Shown: positions 1,494 to 59,444 of the stretch, one piece after another
How positions within the stretch are numbered: the first letter of the stretch is position 1
Layout: every line of letters begins with the position of its first letter
Source of the DNA: Bacillota bacterium
GTDB taxonomy: Bacteria > Bacillota > SHA-98 > UBA4971
Direction of reading: 5' to 3'
DNA length: 64,000 bases
NCBI GenBank assembly: GCA_014360195.1
Contig: JACIXY010000003.1
Coordinates: 83,692-147,691, forward strand
Program-made: the position numbers and the translations under genes
The notes under the pieces: model-generated
Seen by the model: only the letters and a program-made list of their open reading frames with translations
The model's database searches: none
Told to the model about the DNA's origin: nothing

Positions 1494-1629
1494 CAGGCCA
1501 TGCTCGACCGCAAGGAGGTACGGCCAAACCCACGAGGCTCGTCGCAAGTTGCCATAAAGCACGAGTCGAAACTTTATGAACTATATCCAAAGGACACACC
1601 AGGGACGCGAGTAATTAGTGTAATGAGAG

Positions 1630-1645
1630 TGTCGAAGTGTCGAAT
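1630..1645 (+). promoter_or_regulatory. Two tandem Spo0A-box-like heptamers (TGTCGAA GTGTCGAAT) just upstream of a TTGACA hexamer at about 1660
   Basis: Exact match to the 0A-box consensus TGTCGAA, twice, in the divergent PucR / 1727-operon intergenic region. spo0A is encoded in this window. Confidence 0.3.
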
Positions 1646-1726
1646 CAGGCCACCTCTGGTTGACATTGTTGGAGTCGAGTCGCGTTGCCGTAAGAAGCCA
1701 ATGACACGAGAAGGAGGATTCCAGGG

Positions 1727-2401
1727 ATGATCGTTGACAAGCTGGAGCAGTCCCTTCGCCCGCCCGAGACAAATATGCCCCCGTATCCGCCCAAGTACAT
1801 CACGCTTGCGTCCGGCGAGAAGATGGTGGTCCACCAGGCCAGCCGAGAAGATGTCCCGCGACTTCTCGAGGCCGTAAGGCCTCTCGTGACGGTTGAGAAG
1901 GACTTCTACGACATCGTGGCCGCCCGCCTTTACGCCGAACTCCTGGCCTATCAGCGCTATCGCGTTAAGGACGAGTACGTTCTGGTAGGCACCATCGACG
2001 GCGTCATCGTCGGCATCGTCAATGGTCGGATGGTCGACGACAAGGTCGGGATGTCCTATCATACCGTGGCCATCAAGCGGGGTCTTCGAATCGGAGCCCA
2101 GCTCTTCGCTGCCAAAATGGAATACCACATGGACTACCTGGGCCAGCAGGAAGTGCTCATCGTCGCGGAAAGCCCCATCGGGTATCGGCGGTGGATGATC
2201 GAGTATGAGCTCGAGAGCAGGCCCAGCACCTGGCACGAGCTTGGCGGCGTTCCAACGCACGTTCTCACGAAGGCCCTCTGGGAAAAGCACAAGCCCATGA
2301 AGTGCACGGGCCGTCGCCCTGTGCCTCCCGAGATGCTTGAGGTCGCGAAGAAGCTGATTCTGCCCTCCGAGTATCCTCAGATTCCAGGCTTCAAGCGCTA
2401 A
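1727..2401 (+). CDS. Hypothetical protein with a possible GNAT-like fold (RGLRIGAQL motif-A-like segment)
   Basis: ATG with RBS GAAGGAGGA 8 nt upstream. Sits upstream of the thiolase/DUF35 pair. The function call is weak. Confidence 0.4.
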   Translation: MIVDKLEQSLRPPETNMPPYPPKYITLASGEKMVVHQASREDVPRLLEAVRPLVTVEKDFYDIVAARLYAELLAYQRYRVKDEYVLVGTIDGVIVGIVNGRMVDDKVGMSYHTVAIKRGLRIGAQLFAAKMEYHMDYLGQQEVLIVAESPIGYRRWMIEYELESRPSTWHELGGVPTHVLTKALWEKHKPMKCTGRRPVPPEMLEVAKKLILPSEYPQIPGFKR

Positions 2402-2414
2402 GAAAGGTGGGATC

Positions 2415-3608
2415 GTGGTGAGGAAGGTTGGAATCGCCGGGGTAGGCCACACGAAGTTCGGGCGCTCCGAGGTCTCCCTCGTCGACATGCTTGCCCTCGC
2501 CGCCCTGGAGGCGCTCGACGACGCGGGGATCAGGACAGGAAGGAGACACGGCGTGGACCAGGTGTTCGTGGCGTCGATGGGTGCCGGGATCCTTAACCGC
2601 CAGAGCAGCGTCGCGTCGGCCCTCGTGGACACCCTCAACCTACAGCCTGCAATGGCCGAGACCGTCGAGAACGGCCCTGCTTCCGGCGCGTCCGCCGTGA
2701 AGCTGGGGTACATGGCCATCGCAAGCGGCATGTGTGACGTAGCTCTGGTGGTCGGCGGCGAGCTCATGCGAGTTGTGACCGGCTGGGAGGCCACCGACTT
2801 CGTCGCCACAATGCTTCACCCTGACGCAGAGTACGCGTATGGCCTTACGCTCCCTGCTTTCGCGGGCATGTTCACCAGGCTCTACATGGACAAGTACGGC
2901 GTGACGGAGAAGGACCTCGCCATGGTCGCGGTGAAAAACCACGAGCACGCCATGCACAACCCGGTGGCCCATATACAGCTCGTTCCAAGCTTCCATGCGA
3001 TCATCGAGGACGAGGACGCCCCCGTCATCAACCCGTATGTCGCGGAGCCCCTCCGTGTGTATGACGTGTGCCCGGTCTCCGACGGCGCAGCCGCCGTGGT
3101 GCTATGCGCCATGGACCTTGCAGACCGGTTCCGGAAGAAGCCCGTCAGGATCGCCGGGATCGGCCAAGCTACCGACACTCACGTGGTGGCGGAGCGCGAG
3201 GTTCCTACGGACCTGCTTGCGGTGCGCCTCGCTGCCCAACGCGCATACGCCATGGCTGGCCTCAAGCCCGAAGATATCGACGTGGCAGAGCTGCATGACG
3301 CCTTTACAATACTCGAAATAGCCATATCAGAAGAGGCCGGCCTCTTCCCGAAAGGCGAAGGTCATCTCGCGGTTCGGCGCGGCGAGACCCGTGTGGGCGG
3401 GAGGATCCCCATCAACACCTCGGGTGGGCTCAAGGCCAAAGGGCATCCGCTGGGAGCAACAGGTGTCTCGCAGATCGTAGAACTCGTGCGCCAGCTCCGT
3501 GGGGAAGCAGGCGGCCGGCAGGTCGAGGGCGCAAGGCACGGCCTCGCCGTCAACTTCGGCGGCTTCGGGAACAACGTGGTCGCCACGATTCTGTCGAAGG
3601 AGGAGTGA
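2415..3608 (+). CDS. Thiolase-like protein (SCP-x/nonspecific thiolase type, partner of a DUF35 protein)
   Basis: N-terminus VRKVGIAGVGHTKFGR plus thiolase-fold motifs. The stop is 8 nt before the DUF35 gene. Confidence 0.75.
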   Translation: MVRKVGIAGVGHTKFGRSEVSLVDMLALAALEALDDAGIRTGRRHGVDQVFVASMGAGILNRQSSVASALVDTLNLQPAMAETVENGPASGASAVKLGYMAIASGMCDVALVVGGELMRVVTGWEATDFVATMLHPDAEYAYGLTLPAFAGMFTRLYMDKYGVTEKDLAMVAVKNHEHAMHNPVAHIQLVPSFHAIIEDEDAPVINPYVAEPLRVYDVCPVSDGAAAVVLCAMDLADRFRKKPVRIAGIGQATDTHVVAEREVPTDLLAVRLAAQRAYAMAGLKPEDIDVAELHDAFTILEIAISEEAGLFPKGEGHLAVRRGETRVGGRIPINTSGGLKAKGHPLGATGVSQIVELVRQLRGEAGGRQVEGARHGLAVNFGGFGNNVVATILSKEE

Positions 3609-12375: not shown

Positions 12376-13425
12376 TTACTTTGCGGGCATCTTGCCGGTC
12401 TGCCTCAGGTAGTCGAAGAAGGACTCCTGGTCAGCGAACACCTTTGTGCAGTGGAATTTCAGGAACGGGCTAACGCGCTCCTTGAAGATCGCGTAAACCT
12501 CCTTGTTGTTCGTAGAGCCGTAGATGATCTCACAGAGCACCCCCGGGGATGTCTTGTCCGTCGGATAGTACACGACCACCATGTCGCTCTGGTCGATCAG
12601 CATATAGTCGCGGATGACCGTCTGGTCGGCTATCTCGCCCCTATCTGACGGCGTGATGGCGAACTCCGGACCTATCTCGGAAAGGTTGTAACTCTTCGAC
12701 TCGTCCTTGCCCACGCCATACGAAAGCTCTGTGTCCTCAACAGCAAGCGGGTCGAAGACCTCAAAGTGCTCCCTCAGCCTGTCCCGAAACTCCCTCACTT
12801 CCTGCATCTTCACGGCGTCGTTGTGCATTAGAGTTATCGGGAAGCTCAAGTATATCTTGGGAACCTCAGGCCTGAACATCAGGTTGTAAACGGTGCTCGC
12901 AGGCTGACCCACCGCCACAACGTAGTGCGGCTTTCGCTGGTAGGATGCCATCATCTTCGTGACGAAGATCTCCTCGTCCCGCCAGATGAGGATGTCCTTT
13001 AGTGACAGCCGTCCCCTCCACACAGGCGATTCATCCAGCCTTTTCGATACGTTGAGGATGCTATCGATAATCGTCACGTAAAGGTCGGGCTTGAGTTCGT
13101 TCAGATAATGCACGTCAAACGCGGGCATGAGGTAATTCTTCCAGCGGAAGCAGCCGTGCGTGGAAATGATGCAGTTCTCGACTTTCTCGGCCTTCTTGAG
13201 AATCTCCTCAAATACCGCCGCCCGAAGCGACCTCAGCGTAGACGGTGAGAGATCCAGAATCTTCTCTGGACTCGTGGGGCTCTCCAACTCATCCGCTTTC
13301 TTGAACATAAGGTCGCCGACGTTGAACAGGTGGACCTTCTTGCCAAGCGCCTCTGAAGTGGCAAGCGCCCCCTTGAGGTACTCGAGCTTTCCTGAGCCGC
13401 TGGTGCCTGTGCATATGACCTTCAC
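12376..13425 (-). CDS. Two-domain protein: N-terminal P-loop kinase-like domain (Walker A GTSGSGK) fused to a C-terminal nucleoside 2-deoxyribosyltransferase/SLOG-like Rossmann domain. Lower GC than its neighbours.
   Basis: VKVICTGTSGSGKLEY at the N-terminus. The C-terminal segment SDMVVVYYPTDKTSPGVLCEIIYGSTNNKEVYAIF resembles the NDT/LOG/SLOG core with a conserved Glu. GTG start at 13425 with RBS AGGAGGGG. GC is about 50-53% against about 65% in the flanks, and the protein is K/I/N/Y/F-rich. Confidence 0.5.
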   Translation of the reverse strand: MKVICTGTSGSGKLEYLKGALATSEALGKKVHLFNVGDLMFKKADELESPTSPEKILDLSPSTLRSLRAAVFEEILKKAEKVENCIISTHGCFRWKNYLMPAFDVHYLNELKPDLYVTIIDSILNVSKRLDESPVWRGRLSLKDILIWRDEEIFVTKMMASYQRKPHYVVAVGQPASTVYNLMFRPEVPKIYLSFPITLMHNDAVKMQEVREFRDRLREHFEVFDPLAVEDTELSYGVGKDESKSYNLSEIGPEFAITPSDRGEIADQTVIRDYMLIDQSDMVVVYYPTDKTSPGVLCEIIYGSTNNKEVYAIFKERVSPFLKFHCTKVFADQESFFDYLRQTGKMPAK

Positions 13426-13481
13426 CCGAACCCCTCCTGACAAGAACGTTCGACACCCGTTGGTAGACTCCTCCTCCACTC

Positions 13482-14828
13482 CTACCCTGCGAACCGCTCC
13501 AGCACCAAAGCCATAAACTTGATGCCTTCCAGGAAATCCGATACGTTGACGTTCTCGTCCGGACCGTGCACACGCGATTCTGGGTTACCGATACCGACGC
13601 CCACGGCGGGCGTGCCGAACTGGGCTGCAACCTGGTACATCGGGCCCGTGCCTGCGGAGGTCGGGTACACCGACGGTTCTTTCCCGAACAGTTCCGCACT
13701 TGCCTCCCTGATCACCTTCACTATCCGCGAGTTTGGGTCTGTTCTTGCAGGATGTTCCGCGCCAAGCCACGTCACGCGGAAGTCGCCGTAACCCTTCACT
13801 TTGAGATAGTCCTCGAACTTCCTCGCTATGTCGTCGGGCCGCTGATCCGGCACCAGGCGCATGTCCAGCTTGGCCATGGCCTTGCTGGGTAAAACGGTCT
13901 TCGAGCCAGGCCCCTCATACCCAGCCGAGAGGCCGCATACGTTGCACGTGGGCTCGAAGTAAAGCCGCTTTAAGACGTCCTTGCCGGCGAGGTCCAGCAC
14001 GAACCGGTCGATGCCGAATAGCTTCGCCAGGCGCTCGGGGCTTGCGGGAAGCTTCTCGATGAGCTCGACGTCCTCCGGGCCAGGCTGGCAGACGTCATCG
14101 TAGAACCCCGGGATAAGGATCTCCTCCTTCTCGTTCTTGAGAGAGTTCAGTGCCCAGAGGAGCCTCCACACGGGGCTAGGCACGACGGCGGCAAGGGAAG
14201 AATGCAGATCGTAGCTGCCTCCTTCCACCTCTATGTGGGCGTAGCAAAGCCCCTTGCAGCCCAGCGTGAGCTCGAGCCTGCCGTCCTCCTCACGACCTCC
14301 CGTCTCCCATATGCACGCGTCGGCACGGAAGGCCTCCGGGTGCTCCTTCGCGTAACGATCAAGGTTGGGACTGCCGATCTCCTCCTCGCCCTCGGCGACG
14401 AACTTCACCGTCACAGGAAGCTTTCCTCTAACCTTGAGAAGCGCCTCGGCTGCCTTCACACGCGCCATGAGATCCCCCTTGTTGTCAGCGGCGCCCCGCG
14501 CGTACAGCTTCCCACCGTCGATCTCAGCGCCAAACGGGTCGTGCCGCCACCTGTCGAGAGGCTCCGGCGGCTGGACGTCGTAATGGTTGTAGAAGAGGAC
14601 AGTCTTCTCCTGGTCGCCCGGTATCTCCGCCGTGACAAGCGGCGCGGCCCCCTCTATGCGGAAGACCTGCACTTTCGCCCCCAGGGACGAAAACATTCGC
14701 TCGACGATATTGGCGGCATCCTCCACCCCCTTGCCCTGGGCGGAGATGCTGGGCTGCCGCAAGAAGGCTTGCAGCTCCTTGACGAACCTAGGTGCGTGCC
14801 GATCCACATAATCGAAGACATCTTTCAT
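13482..14828 (-). CDS. M20 family metallopeptidase (dipeptidase / ArgE-DapE-like)
   Basis: HYDVQPP, GAADNKG and EGEEEIGS motifs. The preferred start MKDVFDYV at 14828 overlaps the upstream gene end by 4 nt. Confidence 0.75.
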   Translation of the reverse strand: MKDVFDYVDRHAPRFVKELQAFLRQPSISAQGKGVEDAANIVERMFSSLGAKVQVFRIEGAAPLVTAEIPGDQEKTVLFYNHYDVQPPEPLDRWRHDPFGAEIDGGKLYARGAADNKGDLMARVKAAEALLKVRGKLPVTVKFVAEGEEEIGSPNLDRYAKEHPEAFRADACIWETGGREEDGRLELTLGCKGLCYAHIEVEGGSYDLHSSLAAVVPSPVWRLLWALNSLKNEKEEILIPGFYDDVCQPGPEDVELIEKLPASPERLAKLFGIDRFVLDLAGKDVLKRLYFEPTCNVCGLSAGYEGPGSKTVLPSKAMAKLDMRLVPDQRPDDIARKFEDYLKVKGYGDFRVTWLGAEHPARTDPNSRIVKVIREASAELFGKEPSVYPTSAGTGPMYQVAAQFGTPAVGVGIGNPESRVHGPDENVNVSDFLEGIKFMALVLERFAG

Positions 14829-16666
14829 CCGAACCTTGAACCCCCTGACATCGAGTGATGCCTGCGCCTCCGCACGCCCCTCGGGGAAACTTCGGCACGG
14901 CGGCGAAGCCACCACGCGCCGACCGAAAGCCCCGTGAGAACCGGCGATGACGCACCGATCACCGTCGTCTGAAGCAAGTCAACGTAATACTTGAACGCCC
15001 TGTGAAAGTCGGGCAGATGCCGGGTGAACCTTGCGCCGTCACCTGCCACAAACATGGCAACCTGGAGGACAAGGGCGAACACGATCAGGTAAACGCAGGT
15101 CAAGCCCGTAAGAAGCGCGTCAAGGGGCCGCCTGCGCGTCTCCCACGCGAGCCACCCCGAGACCGCTACGGCAAGCACCCCGCACAGGGCCGAGTCCGCC
15201 ATCCTCCAGGTGAAGAACGGCGCAACCTCGCTTTCGCTATTGAACATGCTCATGGAGAACGCGATGCCGCGCACGAGCACGAGGCCATAAAACGCGGCAA
15301 AGTAGATGGCCGCTCCAATGACAGGGATTCTCATGTTTCGAGCGCTCCAACCCGCGAGGATCGCAAGCCCCCACGCAAGCCCGCCGAGCACGACAACGGT
15401 GGCAGGTATGCTCACGAGCCTCCGCGCGCCGAGAAACCGCTGGCGCGCGCTGGATATCGCCTTCACCATCCGGCTGTCGATCTCCAGGGCAAGCTCGGTT
15501 GCCTCGGTATACTTGCCGTCATTGTGAAGGAGGGCAGCGCTGGAGACAGGCTCGACGGTCGGAAGCCTCCTTCCGAGCACGCGGAGGTACCCTTCGGCGA
15601 AAGCTCGCCTCGCCGCGGCCTGCCTTATCGCTCTCTCAGAGACCACGTGCGGGGCCGCGTCAATCCCCTCGAAGAGGACCCTGCCCTGCGAGTGCGTGGG
15701 AACAGAGGTGCCGAGGAGCGCCGCGCAGGTGGGGGCCACGTCCACATGGCGGGCGGGCATCCATGAAATCTCCGCCCCAGGGTGCTCAGGCGTGACTATC
15801 CCCGCCCCGGCCGCCACCAGCGGGACCTGGACGACATCCTCCTCCCAGCCTCCGTGCCCGCCTCGTAGCGTGTGCCCGTGATCAGATGTCACGACTATGG
15901 TGTCGCTGGTGAGATCAAGGTTAGCCAGGATCTTCCCAACCCTCGCGTCCACCTCGGCCGATGCGGTCTCATAGGCGGCGCTCGCAGCGCCCGAGGTGTG
16001 CCCGGCAGCGTCCACTGACGAGAAGTGCACAACGAGGAACCGGGCGTCGCCCCGCTCGATCTCCCCGAGAGCGGCACGAAGGACCTCATCGTCGGCCTTC
16101 TTGCTCGCAGCGACATCCTCCGCCGCAACCGCATCGACGTATGTCGCCCGCGCAACGGATGCGCCGAAAAGAACCTTCCAATCCTCGCTCGCGGCGAGGG
16201 CGGTCTTAACCCCGGCGCGTCGCGCCGCATCGAAGAGGCTGTCCACGGGGACCGTGCCCTTGTATCCATTAGTGGTCACCCCCGATATCTCCGGAGGCGC
16301 GCCGGTGAGGAGCGTGGTCCATCCGGGATAGGAGAGTGACGGCTGGTTTACTAGAAGCGAAAACGCAGCGCCACGACTTCCGATGTCTTTCAGCACGGGC
16401 ATCTCATCCACTCCGGTAAATCCGAGCCCGTCAATTATCACGAGAACCAGTCTCCGCGTGACTCGTGCCGTGGCCTCGCCAGGCTCAATCGGGAAAGAAT
16501 ATGGGCTCCGGTAGCTTACCACGTCTTCCAGCCCCGATATGGCAAGGTGCCACGAGATGGCTCCCAGGCTTATCATGACGGCGAAGGCAAGGAGAATCAC
16601 TGTTTCCCTGCTTCCAAGCCCGCGGCCTCGAAGTCGCCTCGCCGTTCTCCCAACCGCACCCGACAT
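14825..16666 (-). CDS. Membrane alkaline-phosphatase-superfamily type I phosphodiesterase / nucleotide pyrophosphatase, with one N-terminal TM helix and a C-terminal polytopic membrane domain
   Basis: VLVIIDGLGFTG...SYPGWTTLLTGA...VVTSDHGH are PF01663-like motifs. About 5 predicted TM helices follow the catalytic core. Confidence 0.65.
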   Translation of the reverse strand: MSGAVGRTARRLRGRGLGSRETVILLAFAVMISLGAISWHLAISGLEDVVSYRSPYSFPIEPGEATARVTRRLVLVIIDGLGFTGVDEMPVLKDIGSRGAAFSLLVNQPSLSYPGWTTLLTGAPPEISGVTTNGYKGTVPVDSLFDAARRAGVKTALAASEDWKVLFGASVARATYVDAVAAEDVAASKKADDEVLRAALGEIERGDARFLVVHFSSVDAAGHTSGAASAAYETASAEVDARVGKILANLDLTSDTIVVTSDHGHTLRGGHGGWEEDVVQVPLVAAGAGIVTPEHPGAEISWMPARHVDVAPTCAALLGTSVPTHSQGRVLFEGIDAAPHVVSERAIRQAAARRAFAEGYLRVLGRRLPTVEPVSSAALLHNDGKYTEATELALEIDSRMVKAISSARQRFLGARRLVSIPATVVVLGGLAWGLAILAGWSARNMRIPVIGAAIYFAAFYGLVLVRGIAFSMSMFNSESEVAPFFTWRMADSALCGVLAVAVSGWLAWETRRRPLDALLTGLTCVYLIVFALVLQVAMFVAGDGARFTRHLPDFHRAFKYYVDLLQTTVIGASSPVLTGLSVGAWWLRRRAEVSPRGVRRRRHHSMSGGSRFG

Positions 16667-16708: not shown

Positions 16709-17584
16709 TTATTGGGTTTTCGACACACCTGACCTGTTCCCTCCACCCACGTCCGCGGCAAGCTCGCGCCACCTCCTGTCGAGGTCGTCCACGACGCTAT
16801 CAGGCACAGACACACCTCCAAGCACGGCAGGCTCATCGGGCGCGACGCCGTGGAAGTCACTTCCACCTGTAACGATGAGGCCGTGCCGCCTGGCGACCTC
16901 GACCCACCGCCTGGTGAGTTCAGAATCATGAGCCGGGTAGTATGCCTCGATCCCCTCAAGCCCCGCCTCGATGAGACCCTCGAGGAGAGCCTCTCCCGCC
17001 GTCCTCCCGGGGTGGGCCAGCACGGGCACACCCCTCGCCGCCCGCACCAGGCGGACAGCTTCCGTCGGGGTCAGCCCGTAATGCTCCACGTACGCGAGAC
17101 CCTCTTTCCCCAGGTATTTCTCGAAGTCGCCGTAGCGGCGCTCAGGCCTCGCATACCCCAGGTTCACCATGGCGCGAAAGATCTGGCTTCTTCCCACGAA
17201 ACCCTCCTTCCCAAGGCTTAAAACGTAAGGTAGGGAGATTTTTATTCCAAGCTTACCCAGTTTCTCCAGTATCCTCTTGGCCCTGGCGATCCTTCCCTGC
17301 CGCAGCATGTGAAGAGTCCCCAGGAACGTTGGCGACGACGTGTCAATATGGTAGCCGAGGATATGAACCTCGGCTTCCTCCACGTCGGTCGATAGTTCAA
17401 CGCCGGGTATAACGCGCACCCCCAACTTCACCCCAGCGGGCACCGCCTCCTGCACACCGTCAACGGTATCGTGATCGGTGAGCGCGATGGTCTTGACGTT
17501 CCTGTTGAATGCCAGTCGTACAAGCTCCTTTGGACAATAACGTCCGTCTGACGCCGTCGAGTGAACGTGCAGGTCAACCGCCAC
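16709..17584 (-). CDS. PHP-domain metal-dependent phosphoesterase (TrpH/YciV-like)
   Basis: VAVDLHVHSTASDG...ALTDHDT...GGSDFHG. GTG start at 17584 with RBS GAGGGGGA. The ORF-track start is a TTG further upstream. Confidence 0.7.
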   Translation of the reverse strand: MAVDLHVHSTASDGRYCPKELVRLAFNRNVKTIALTDHDTVDGVQEAVPAGVKLGVRVIPGVELSTDVEEAEVHILGYHIDTSSPTFLGTLHMLRQGRIARAKRILEKLGKLGIKISLPYVLSLGKEGFVGRSQIFRAMVNLGYARPERRYGDFEKYLGKEGLAYVEHYGLTPTEAVRLVRAARGVPVLAHPGRTAGEALLEGLIEAGLEGIEAYYPAHDSELTRRWVEVARRHGLIVTGGSDFHGVAPDEPAVLGGVSVPDSVVDDLDRRWRELAADVGGGNRSGVSKTQ

Positions 17585-17699
17585 CTGGAAATCCCCCTCG
17601 TATCCTCTGCAGGAACACAGGAGCCGCCCTCCTTGCGATCCCCGTACATGCAATTATTGCCCGCAAGTGTCGGTTTATTTCCCATGCCTGTGGACATAC

Positions 17700-56915: not shown

Positions 56916-58064
56916 CTACGCACCTCTCGCGCCTGCAGTCGCAGTAACCTCATAGACCTGCCCGCTGCGGTCATGGAGGAGATGACGGTACCGCTCATCG
57001 TCACGCAAGCGTGCTACCACCTCCCGGACTCGCTGCACCGAATCTTTGTGACACACGAGTAACGCATCGCCCGTATCGACAATGACCAAATCACGGAGAC
57101 CTACCGTCGCTACAAGGCGGCCCGTGTCGCTGTAGACTATACAGTTGCTGGTATCTACTCCAACGTATTCGCTCTGAATAACGTTGCCCGCCCTATCTGC
57201 TGGAAGCAAGCGTCCCAGAGCCGACCAGCTGCCAACATCATCCCATCCGAAGGAAGCGGGCACGCATATTATCCGTTCCTCCTTTTCCATGATCCCGTAG
57301 TCAACGGATATCGATGGTATCCTGAAATACTCCTGTCTGAGAACGCGCCAGTAGTGCGGTGTGCCTACCGCTTCGCGGATACGGCTCATCGCTTCAGCCA
57401 CCTCGGGAAGGTGCTTTTCGAAGGCGCGTTCGATTGTCTTCAGGCGCCAGATGAACATGCCGCTGTTCCACAGGTAATCTCCTGAACGCAGATAGGCCTC
57501 GGCGCGCCGGCGGTCGGGCTTTTCCACAAATCGATGCACCCGGTAGAATCGCAAACCATCGAGCTCTCGAAGATCTACAATGTGGATATAGCCATAACCG
57601 GTCTCAGGCCGGGTCGGCCGGACCCCTATAGTCACAAGGCAGTCCCGGTAATCGGGCTCCCGCACCAACCGGGAGGCGCGTTCCAGGGTGCGCCGGAACT
57701 CTTCGTCGTCGAGGACTGCATGGTCTGCCGGTAGAACCGCCATTACAAGATCATCGTCGGCGCCGGCGGCGCGGAGATGGGCCACGGCCAGAGCAATACA
57801 AGGGGCCGTGTTCTTTCCTTCCGGTTCGGTCATGATGTGGTTTTGGGGTACGCGCGGGACCTGTTTTCGGACCTCATCATGCAGGTGTGAAGCGGTAACT
57901 ATGTAGATCCCGCCCGCTCCGCAAAGAGGCAAAAGGCGGTCGACAGTCTGCTGGACCAGGGACTTCTTCCCACCAATGGACAGCAACTGCTTGGGTCGTT
58001 CCCTGCGACTCACCGGCCAAAAGCGTTCGCCACCTCCTCCGGCCATGATCACAGCTGTCAGCAT
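56916..58064 (-). CDS. manC: Mannose-1-phosphate guanylyltransferase
   Basis: MLTAVIMAGGGGERFWP...KQLL. ATG 58064 with RBS GAGGAGGGG. Confidence 0.8.
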   Translation of the reverse strand: MLTAVIMAGGGGERFWPVSRRERPKQLLSIGGKKSLVQQTVDRLLPLCGAGGIYIVTASHLHDEVRKQVPRVPQNHIMTEPEGKNTAPCIALAVAHLRAAGADDDLVMAVLPADHAVLDDEEFRRTLERASRLVREPDYRDCLVTIGVRPTRPETGYGYIHIVDLRELDGLRFYRVHRFVEKPDRRRAEAYLRSGDYLWNSGMFIWRLKTIERAFEKHLPEVAEAMSRIREAVGTPHYWRVLRQEYFRIPSISVDYGIMEKEERIICVPASFGWDDVGSWSALGRLLPADRAGNVIQSEYVGVDTSNCIVYSDTGRLVATVGLRDLVIVDTGDALLVCHKDSVQRVREVVARLRDDERYRHLLHDRSGQVYEVTATAGARGA

Positions 58065-58664
58065 ACGATCCCCTCCTCGTCGCAAAATCACACTTCCCAA
58101 GAGCTTTTCAAATTTTCTCCCTTGCTTCATACCTCTTGAGTTAGACTGAAAAGCCAAACCGAAGAGCACGCCTGTCTTTTGATTGTTCCTGGCAATCCTT
58201 GGATAATGATCCGTATCGGATTTAGATGGTTTGCAGGGAGAGAAGCGCAAGAGAAGCGCAAGATTGGACTAGAGGAGATGGCCCCTCTGCCACAAACTAC
58301 TCACTTAATATTTATACCTGGTCTGAGCGCGGATTTCAAGGAAGATCAGGGCCCGTGCAGGCAGCAAAACCAGCAGCAGGACAGAGTTCCTGCCACGACG
58401 GCGGTTATCTCACGGCCTTTCATCCGCATGCTTCATCTTGGACGGCCCCAACAGGCTCAGCACAAGGGATACGCACCGACACTTGTTGAGACAGAGTCCG
58501 CGGCCAAACGTTCGTCTATGAGAGGTCTTGAGTCCCTCTAGGTGTCAATGTCGCCGGCCGCATAGCACACCAGGCCCCGGAACATATCATCCCGGAACTG
58601 TCCCTGCCAGAGAAAGTATGCGCCAACTCATGCTCCACCGTAGCCTCACGTCGGTGCCGGCAGG

Positions 58665-59444
58665 TCAACTCGCCCGCATTTCGAGGCGCAGCTTATCTGC
58701 GACCCGGGCGATGAAGGCGGAGTTGGTGGGCTTTCCTTTTTCGCTGCTCACCGTATGTCCGAAAACGCTGTTCAGAAACTCGATGTTCCCTCGTGTCCAT
58801 GCGATTTCGATGGCGTGGCGAATGGCACGCTCGACCCGGGGCGCCGTGGTATCGAACTTCTGTGCTACCCTCGGGTACAGCTCTTTCGTGACCCCGTTCA
58901 GAAGGCCAACCTCATTGACCACCATGATGATGGCCTCCCTGAGGTACATGTAGCCTCTGATGTTCGCTGGGATCCCCATCTCGTGGATGATCCGGGTCAC
59001 TTCGGTATTCAGGTCACGCGGGACCTCAGCTGGACCCGCCTTCCTCTTCCTCACAACTCCGCCGCTCTGAGCCACCTGCCGGATCCTCTGGGCCAGCGTC
59101 TCCATGTCGAACGGCTTAAGTATGTAGTAGTCGGCGCCAAGCTCGATGATGCTCTGAGTCATGTGCTCTTGCCCAATGGCGGTAAGCATTACGAACCTCG
59201 GCCGCCTGGAGATATCTTGCTTTGCAAGGCGCTCGAGCACCCCGATACCGTCGAGGTACGGCATGATGATATCAAGGATCACCACGTCGGGGCTGGTGGT
59301 AGATATGCCTTCGAGAGCTTCCAGGCCGTCATAGGCAACCCCGACTACTTCCATGTCAGGCTGGGCGTCGATGAATTCCTTCAGGACCTCGCACAGTTCG
59401 TGGTTGTCGTCGACTATAAGAACGCGTGTCCGACCAGAAGCCAT
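58665..59444 (-). CDS. spo0A: Stage 0 sporulation protein A
   Basis: Receiver domain (VLIVDDN...D...) plus a Spo0A_C domain ([20 protein letters not shown]...[22 protein letters not shown]). Confidence 0.92.

Follow-up and report, generated by a model that had tools for sequence, protein, structure and literature searches.

A candidate nucleotide-metabolizing fusion of adenylate-kinase-like and NDT/DNPH1-like domains in uncultured Bacillota and its widespread family

Several enzymes are known that act on the N-glycosidic bonds of nucleosides or nucleotides. The 2'-deoxynucleoside 5'-phosphate N-hydrolase DNPH1 (Rcl) is a stand-alone dimer of about 170 amino acids, the CMP (hmCMP) N-glycosidases MilB and BcmB belong to antibiotic biosynthesis clusters, and the nucleoside 2-deoxyribosyltransferases (NDTs; PF05014) act on nucleosides. 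The AMP nucleosidase Amn and the LOG-like nucleotide nucleosidase PpnN cleave nucleoside 5'-monophosphates to a base and ribose 5-phosphate under adenylate or alarmone control, the former being controlled by ATP and phosphate and the latter by (p)ppGpp. We know of no NDT with an attached kinase-like domain. Here we analyze a gene at positions 12376-13425 (minus strand) of a 64,000-nucleotide stretch of contig JACIXY010000003.1 from a Bacillota bacterium (the whole stretch is called the window below), whose 349-residue product joins an archaeal-type adenylate-kinase-like domain to an NDT/DNPH1-like domain. We propose, with a probability of about 0.5, that it is a resident, vertically inherited, two-domain nucleotide-metabolizing enzyme of a widespread uncharacterized family, and that it most likely breaks down or controls nucleotides. 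Both domain superfamilies are known, and homologs are present in the databases under generic names (“AAA family ATPase”, “ATP-binding protein”, “hypothetical protein”, “adenylate kinase”); what is new is a widespread uncharacterized fusion with a testable biochemical prediction.

We used structure prediction to compare both halves of the protein with solved structures. An AlphaFold2 model of the whole protein, built from 51 homologs, is confident except at residues 238-255 (predicted local distance difference test score, pLDDT, 88.4; predicted template modeling score, pTM, 0.88), and a separate model of residues 186-349 has a pLDDT of 87.4. The modeled C-terminal half shows the NDT/DNPH1 fold. 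When this domain was searched against the Protein Data Bank (PDB) with Foldseek, all of the top 50 matches were members of the NDT superfamily, including the Desulfotalea psychrophila NDT 7o62 (E = 2.4e-7), YtoQ 8of6 (E = 4e-6; a literature search for YtoQ found nothing), DNPH1 8rpt (E = 6e-5; template modeling (TM) score about 0.7), a purine deoxyribosyltransferase, and a cyanobacterial (Chroococcidiopsis) NDT. The closest solved structures are the NDTs, namely 7o62 and the Lactobacillus PDT 1s2d (E = 2.4e-7, TM score 0.75), which share the Glu nucleophile and an Asp with the domain. With the full-length model as the query, the C-terminal half matches a 2'-deoxyribosyltransferase, and at the sequence level PF05014 is matched at E < 0.01 in 50 of 51 family members (best E = 8.6e-7). 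The initial annotation had described this half as an NDT/SLOG/TIR-like Rossmann domain and had made that reading depend on structure prediction returning an NDT/SLOG-like fold. An NDT-superfamily fold with the conserved Glu is indeed what we find; the SLOG, LOG and TIR part of the description falls away, as the top 50 PDB matches include no TIR, LOG or SLOG structure. The protein reads SPGVLCE where the LOG/SLOG motif would read PGGxGTxxE, and in a library of viral structures NDTs lead the matches to the C-terminal domain, followed by one TIR model (E = 6e-4) and SLOG models (E = 0.03-0.04).

Alignments place a putative active site within this fold. With hhalign, D273, S293 and E299 pair with D80, S98 and E104 of human DNPH1 (E = 2.5e-4, probability 43%); the DNPH1 sequence used agrees with twelve residue numbers in PMC10603095. 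In DNPH1, D80 is the acid/base, E104 attacks as the nucleophile to give the glycosyl-enzyme intermediate, and S98 is a ligand of the 5'-phosphate, with S97 of MilB being the same Ser (PMC10603095). E299 and D273 also align to the Glu and Asp of 4hx9 and 4jen, residues that in the NDT fold belong to the N-terminus of helix 4 (the nucleophile) and to helix 3, respectively. The latter, the CMP N-glycosidase BcmB, is the best PDB sequence-profile match of the domain, although at E = 0.085 it falls below significance on its own; MilB and BcmB share with the family the pattern D..(I/L)...D....P....SPG...E, and BcmB reads SPGTHIE against SPGVLCE in our protein. In the same alignment the nucleoside-specific Desulfotalea NDT reads DDGVAFE. 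Among 156 distinct family members, Y192, S194, P196, D273, Q279, G295, V296, E299, P320 and F321 are invariant in this domain, and R272 and S293 (99%) and S319 and K308 (98%) are nearly so. In the L. leichmannii NDT, Asp92, six residues before the Glu, contacts the free 5'-OH of the nucleoside. This NDT-type Asp is not kept in the family, which has Ser293 at that position in 99% of its members, as DNPH1 has its phosphate-binding Ser. Mainly because Ser and not Asp stands six residues before the Glu, we predict that the substrate is a 5'-monophosphate. Two further assignments are plausible by position: Tyr192 lies where Tyr7 of NDT and Tyr24 of DNPH1, linked to deoxyribose preference, would be expected, and Ser319 is a candidate second phosphate ligand like Ser128' of DNPH1.

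The family departs from these enzymes in several ways. It shares only about 15% identity with DNPH1, is fused behind a kinase-like domain, carries a variable insert of about 30 residues, and has no verified equivalents of the base-recognition residues His56 and Glu55. The insert differs in length between lineages and in one relative (P0224) holds an HhH module. In MilB the phosphate is bound by Arg23 and ribose preference depends on Phe17; the family appears to have Thr198 and Tyr192 at these positions, and its genomic context differs from the antibiotic clusters of MilB and BcmB.

Given that the best structural matches (7o62, 1s2d, and the Chroococcidiopsis enzyme) are bona fide NDTs and that the Pfam match is to PF05014, the gene might instead serve nucleoside salvage: the C-terminal domain would then exchange bases on nucleosides as a genuine (deoxy)ribosyltransferase, leaving the resulting nucleoside or nucleotide to be phosphorylated by the kinase-like domain, a pairing that is metabolically sensible. 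This is unlikely in our view, since the nearly invariant Ser is that of nucleotide-specific enzymes, the N-terminal domain is of the nucleoside-monophosphate (NMP)-kinase type rather than the nucleoside-kinase type, and a related protein is fused to a NUDIX domain, which yields monophosphates. The same fusion also bears on a different substrate class. NUDIX partners often act on ADP-ribose or NADH, enzymes that cleave NAD(P) or NMN are found in the wider NDT/TIR/CD38 fold class, and the viral TIR model gives its weak match, so that the substrate of the C-terminal domain could be a pyridine nucleotide (NMN, NaMN, NAD, or ADP-ribose derivatives). An NMN nucleosidase would be one example, and the kinase-like domain would then take part in NAD salvage. 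However, the closest structures and motifs are those of NDT, DNPH1, MilB and BcmB rather than TIR or CD38, and no NAD-salvage gene is found in any neighborhood examined, making a pyridine substrate very improbable.

We favor cleavage of a (deoxy)nucleoside 5'-monophosphate. In the proposed mechanism, the C-terminal domain would break the N-glycosidic bond by a retaining double displacement, as in DNPH1 and MilB. Glu299 would attack C1' to give a covalent (deoxy)ribosyl-5-phosphate-enzyme intermediate, with Asp273 as the acid/base and Ser293, perhaps together with Ser319, holding the 5'-phosphate. Hydrolysis, rather than the less likely transfer, would then yield the free base and (deoxy)ribose 5-phosphate. 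If this residue-level prediction holds, the family would fill a step of nucleotide catabolism or pool control where degradation routes are poorly mapped, and would bring a new architecture to the DNPH1/NDT enzymes, a family of medical and biocatalytic interest.

The model of the N-terminal half shows the fold of the trimeric archaeal adenylate kinases. Foldseek matches it to 1kht, 6pjw and 3h86 (E = 6e-11, target TM scores 0.84-0.86), PDB profiles match 6ln3, 6pjw and 1ki9 (E = 7e-12 to 3e-9), and NCBIfam and PDB both point to archaeal adenylate kinases for residues 1-130. Pfam AAA_17 is matched by the window protein (E = 4e-10) and by all 51 family members examined. These results bear out, at the level of the fold, the P-loop kinase that had been called at this end of the protein. 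Like the archaeal AdkA enzymes (1kht, 6pjw, 6ln3, 1nks, and OdinAK 7owe), the family has a “PD” motif and the active-site His: His90 stands opposite the His of the archaeal “DTH” motif, which is described as conserved in the active sites of these kinases (PMC9635829). Eight residues of the domain are invariant in 156 sequences (L57, R68, H90, F93, W95, W136, W148 and E152) and six positions are highly conserved (R94, E151, R129, R149 and R137/R139). The FRW, W136 and WRDEE motifs, as well as the fusion itself, set the family apart from AdkA, and the Arg-rich loop at residues 129-152 may act as a lid.

How the kinase-like domain would contribute can be pictured in two ways. It may make the monophosphate substrate from di- or triphosphates, as adenylate kinase does, or adenylate binding may gate the glycosidase. 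Judged from its residues, it may transfer phosphate or may only bind a phosphorylated ligand; the residue evidence points both ways. A full coupling of the two activities, in which ADP or another nucleoside diphosphate would be converted to a triphosphate and an NMP, and the NMP immediately to a base and ribose 5-phosphate, is a tentative and rather doubtful extension of our proposal. If true, one polypeptide would do the work of adenylate kinase plus AMP nucleosidase, AMP deaminase or AMP phosphorylase, and the coupled enzyme would be an unrecognized archaeal-type device that buffers the adenylate energy charge and feeds nucleotide ribose to central carbon metabolism.

A number of observations weigh against a two-domain enzyme. 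The match of the window protein to PF05014 (E = 0.0057) scores 17.2 bits against a gathering score of 28.8, and its match to the NCBIfam archaeal adenylate kinase NF003122/PRK04040 (E = 5e-11), which covers residues 1-122, scores 42.5 bits against an equivalog cut-off of 155. The equivalence of Tyr192 to Tyr24 and of Ser319 to Ser128' is drawn from position only, the DNPH1 alignment stopping at residue 318. In the kinase-like domain, where archaeal AdkA has the P-loop GxPGxGK[S/T]T, the family has TGxSGSG[R/K]: position 13 is Arg in 41 of 51 members, Lys in 8 and Ala or Val in 2, and no Ser/Thr follows the basic residue, position 14 being variable. The Asp of the archaeal “DTH” motif, at the Walker-B position, is replaced by Ser, Ala or Asn (Ser88 here), and the AMP-site “DRD..R” segment of archaeal adenylate kinases aligns to “xExKILDL”. 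Across 76 loci, clustering of the neighboring genes gave none that is kept from one phylum to another. Finally, the literature searched held no paper on this domain architecture and no characterized member of the family.

The P-loop and “DTH” substitutions, the altered AMP site, and the tandem kinase-like domains of some relatives, an arrangement often seen in regulatory modules, are the features expected if the kinase-like domain were a catalytically dead sensor. In this scenario it would bind ATP, ADP, AMP or another phosphorylated ligand and allosterically switch the N-glycosidase, as in the control of Amn and PpnN. The likeness to Amn and PpnN would be one of logic: their catalytic folds (the PNP/UDP type and the LOG type, respectively) differ from that of the family, and we detected no sequence relationship. 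Against a dead domain, His90, Arg68, Arg94, Arg129, Arg137/139 and Arg149 are as conserved as the catalytic residues of the C-terminal domain. The Arg at the P-loop should not be over-read, because the P-loop Lys is missing as well from functional Methanococcus adenylate kinases with PDB entries (“GVPGVGGTT”), and the window protein and its clade retain Lys13 as the basic residue. We regard the sensor as the main alternative to the two-domain enzyme, possible but less probable.

We next consider the origin of the gene, which the initial annotation took for a compositionally foreign gene, horizontally acquired and inserted singly into a native operon. A GC dip does exist, at 54.8% for the gene against a window mean of 62.5% rather than the 50-53% against 65% given before, and this gene has the lowest GC of the 46 window open reading frames (ORFs) of at least 150 amino acids (0.550 for its long ORF; mean 0.628, standard deviation 0.027). 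The dip is confined to the first and second codon positions (GC1 0.523 and GC2 0.346, against window ORF means of 0.667 and 0.473); at third positions GC is at or above the window mean (GC3 0.774 against 0.746). The codon adaptation index relative to 28 window genes is 0.704, within the leave-one-out distribution of those genes (0.697±0.025), and re-encoding the protein with the synonymous preferences of the window gives an expected GC of 0.553 against the observed 0.548. Compared to the window, the protein is rich in Lys (8.0 vs 3.0%), Tyr (4.6 vs 2.0%), Phe (5.2 vs 3.2%), Asn (2.9 vs 1.9%) and, slightly, Ile, and poor in Ala (5.2 vs 12.0%) and Gly (4.6 vs 9.1%). The richness in K/I/N/Y/F reported earlier is thus one of amino acids, with Ile barely raised, and not of foreign codon usage. 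In 28 bacterial and archaeal loci of the family, GC3 of the gene (0.29-0.86) tracks the host (flank GC 0.35-0.66), and gene GC is slightly below that of the flanks in 26 of the 28. Given that GC3 and codon adaptation are native and that the amino-acid content predicts the observed GC, the low GC is a by-product of a conserved Lys/Tyr/Phe-rich, Ala/Gly-poor protein and not of foreign origin. This case shows that a GC dip may arise purely from amino-acid composition.

Comparison with relatives leads to the same view of the locus. Proteins 74-99% identical to the window protein belong to an uncultured Bacillota clade known from digesters and comparable environments. In five relatives (L016-L020) more than 13 kb, the gene included, align colinearly with the window at 80-84% nucleotide identity, and in more distant ones (68-74% nucleotide identity) it still comes after the same PHP-phosphoesterase gene, the first of the co-directional cluster, and the same gene for a 600-residue phosphodiesterase-like protein. 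Both of these upstream neighbors are conserved in the Bacillota clade and hold the same position in L001-L006. The M20 peptidase gene and the downstream PAS-GAF-GGDEF gene that flank our gene in the window come and go, being absent from the locus in more distant relatives. Since the gene is kept in place in all relatives examined while these neighbors vary, it is the fixed part of the locus rather than an insertion. A search of the flanks turned up no tRNA genes and no direct or inverted repeats of note. The gene is also under strong purifying selection, because the protein of the closest relative (L016) is 97% identical within a region that is 84% identical in DNA. With native codon usage, host-tracking GC3 and conserved synteny, neither a recent acquisition nor a single-gene insertion is upheld.

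Two minor observations concern these loci. The longest ORF of the M20 gene (13482-14915, minus strand) overlaps the end of the phosphodiesterase-like gene by 91 nucleotides, and its true start is probably an internal MKDVFDYV near 14798. One of the five colinear relatives, L019 (JBLNCC010000121.1), is labeled “Betaproteobacteria bacterium MAG135”; its protein is 92% identical and about 10 kb are colinear at 80% nucleotide identity, like the Bacillota metagenome-assembled genomes (MAGs) of the same project, and the contig is probably mis-binned.

A recently acquired SLOG/TIR-type defense or effector gene, as had been suggested with reference to Thoeris ThsA, would fit the lowest GC in the window and the fact that the nearest relatives outside the Bacillota clade are archaeal and at most 52% identical. 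We consider this extremely improbable. Native synonymous codon usage fully explains the GC, relatives as distant as 68% nucleotide identity carry the gene at the same locus, and the neighbors are housekeeping genes in archaea and bacteria. A PADLOC scan of the gene and four neighbors left the gene itself without a match and returned just two marginal PDC-M49A matches, both on the neighboring PHP protein (E = 0.0022 and 0.0092); PHROGs gave a chance-level match only, and tblastn against phage and plasmid collections found no homolog. Together with the lack of TIR among the top 50 PDB matches, these results led us to reject a defense or TIR-type effector role.

The preferred reading of the gene as a nucleotide-metabolizing enzyme finds hints in its neighborhoods. 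Archaeal neighbors include triose-phosphate isomerase, FBPase and SerRS, pyruvate kinase with a PF01182 enzyme, and ribonucleotide reductases. Synteny is lineage-specific only, with a glutaredoxin-like gene in Thermofilaceae, a HAD hydrolase in Asgard archaea, PF01182 in Brockarchaeota and Nitrososphaerota, and the thymidylate kinase gene tmk in Anaerolineae. In Anaerolineae, the family gene overlaps the end of tmk by 4 nucleotides, with guanylate kinase 1.5 kb away, and in Anaerolineae/Chloroflexota it lies between tmk and a PF06153 c-di-AMP-receptor-like gene (L014 4120-6204, L015; L027 5336-6004), and in Bacillus the tmk-darA junction lies at this position. The tmk overlap, the NUDIX fusion, and the nucleotide-pyrophosphatase-like and PHP genes upstream in the Bacillota clade all hint at nucleotide metabolism.

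The family itself is widespread. A pattern scan of one genome per GTDB species, counting confirmed relatives, places it in at least 583 species across Thermoproteota, Asgard archaea, Chloroflexota and the present Bacillota clade, and an exhaustive profile search of 1.84 billion cluster representatives returned 387 clusters at E <= 1e-30. Archaeal hosts include Thermofilaceae, Bathyarchaeia, Nitrososphaeria, Brockarchaeota, a Korarchaeia-like MAG, Conexivisphaera and Micrarchaeota, as well as the Asgard lineages Heimdall-, Hod-, Hermod- and Promethearchaeota. Among the bacterial hosts are the Bacillota clade, Chloroflexota/Anaerolineae, KSB1, Ignavibacteria and Caldisericales. No match from beyond the Bacillota clade exceeds 52% identity to the window protein, and the best of these is archaeal. 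A neighbor-joining tree recovers the Bacillota clade as monophyletic, with Anaerolineae and a single Korarchaeia-like sequence close by; the tree is rough, was read disregarding the L037 and L040 sequences (wrong frame), and leaves the direction of transfer unsettled. An ancient transfer between archaea and bacteria is likely, and the archaeal-type kinase fold together with the patchy bacterial distribution suggests that it ran from archaea to bacteria. The putative active-site residues of both domains are invariant in a family that spans hundreds of species, including relatives of ammonia oxidizers, and that carries only generic annotation.

Some relatives vary the architecture, having two tandem kinase-like domains before the NDT-like domain or, in one case, a C-terminal NUDIX domain. 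The variant proteins are P0122, P0123, P0127, P0135, P0143 and P0174 (566-614 amino acids), P0199 (491) and P0224 (453). A comparable kinase/NDT-like fusion may also exist in a virus: part of the 602-residue Tupanvirus soda lake protein A0A6N1NX88 (BFVD), which is annotated as adenylate kinase and is much longer, matches the model of the C-terminal domain (E = 1.8e-3).

The gene is an intact ORF, which we judge to be real, and its features are collected in Table 1. The longest minus-strand ORF runs from 12376 to 13479, and we take the GTG at 13425 and the 349-residue product as correct because AGGAGG stands 7 nucleotides before this codon and the start agrees with the homologs, every one of which begins at the equivalent of MKVICTG. 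The limits of the gene had been placed identically by the initial annotation, and the product does contain the two segments it cited, GTSGSGK (residues 7-13) and SDMVVVYYPTDKTSPGVLCEIIYGSTNNKEVYAIF (residues 280-314). Promoter and terminator scans around the gene gave no signal above shuffled expectation.

Table 1. Coordinates of the gene, its parts and its conserved upstream neighbors in the window.
Feature	Position	Strand	Basis
Complete gene, adenylate-kinase-like domain + NDT/DNPH1-like domain	12376..13425	-	349 codons + TAA stop at 12376-12378; ORF list, sequence, 206 full-length homologs, AlphaFold2 model
Shine-Dalgarno AGGAGG	13433..13438	-	7 nt upstream of GTG at 13425; read from sequence
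Archaeal-type adenylate-kinase-like domain, residues 1-185	12871..13425	-	Pfam, NCBIfam, PDB profiles, Foldseek
P-loop TGTSGSGK, residues 6-13	13387..13410	-	column counts in 51 members
STHGCFRW, residues 88-95	13141..13164	-	alignment to archaeal adenylate kinases, conservation in 156 sequences
Arg-rich lid-like loop (R129, W136, R137, R139), then WRDEE helix start, residues 129-152	12970..13041	-	conservation 81-100% in 156 sequences, model secondary structure
NDT/DNPH1-like domain, residues 186-349	12379..12870	-	Pfam PF05014, Foldseek
KIYLSFPIT, first strand + loop of C-terminal domain, residues 190-198	12832..12858	-	Tyr192, Ser194, Pro196 invariant; strand from model
Variable low-confidence insert, residues 227-258	12652..12747	-	pLDDT <50 at 238-255, gapped alignment columns
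Putative catalytic core RDYMLIDQSD-MVVVYYPTDKT-SPGVLCE-IIYGSTNNK, residues 272-308	12502..12612	-	hhalign to DNPH1, 4jen alignment, conservation
SPF, residues 319-321, just after strand 5	12463..12471	-	conserved 98, 100, 100%
Context: membrane-anchored type I phosphodiesterase/nucleotide-pyrophosphatase-like protein	14825..16666	-	Pfam PF01663 E 3e-21
Context: PHP-domain phosphoesterase	16709..17653	-	Pfam PF02811

Other genes of the window also drew our attention. A 411-residue ORF at 1574-2809 (minus strand), with a typical GC3 of 0.68, gives no Pfam hit below E = 0.001. At 56.5-59.5 kb GC falls to its minimum for the window (0.52-0.58), and a mannose-1-phosphate guanylyltransferase-like gene within this stretch (NTP_transferase plus ManC beta-helix; 56916-58250, minus strand) has the lowest GC3 of the window ORFs (0.609, against the mean of 0.746). 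Because it deviates at synonymous sites, this gene is a better candidate for recent acquisition than the kinase/NDT-like fusion gene. Finally, the gene at 58665-59444 (minus strand) is an ortholog of Spo0A (Response_reg plus Spo0A_C, E = 1e-40), which fits an endospore-forming Bacillota host and is in line with the way the closest MAGs are labeled (“Clostridia/Bacillota bacterium”).

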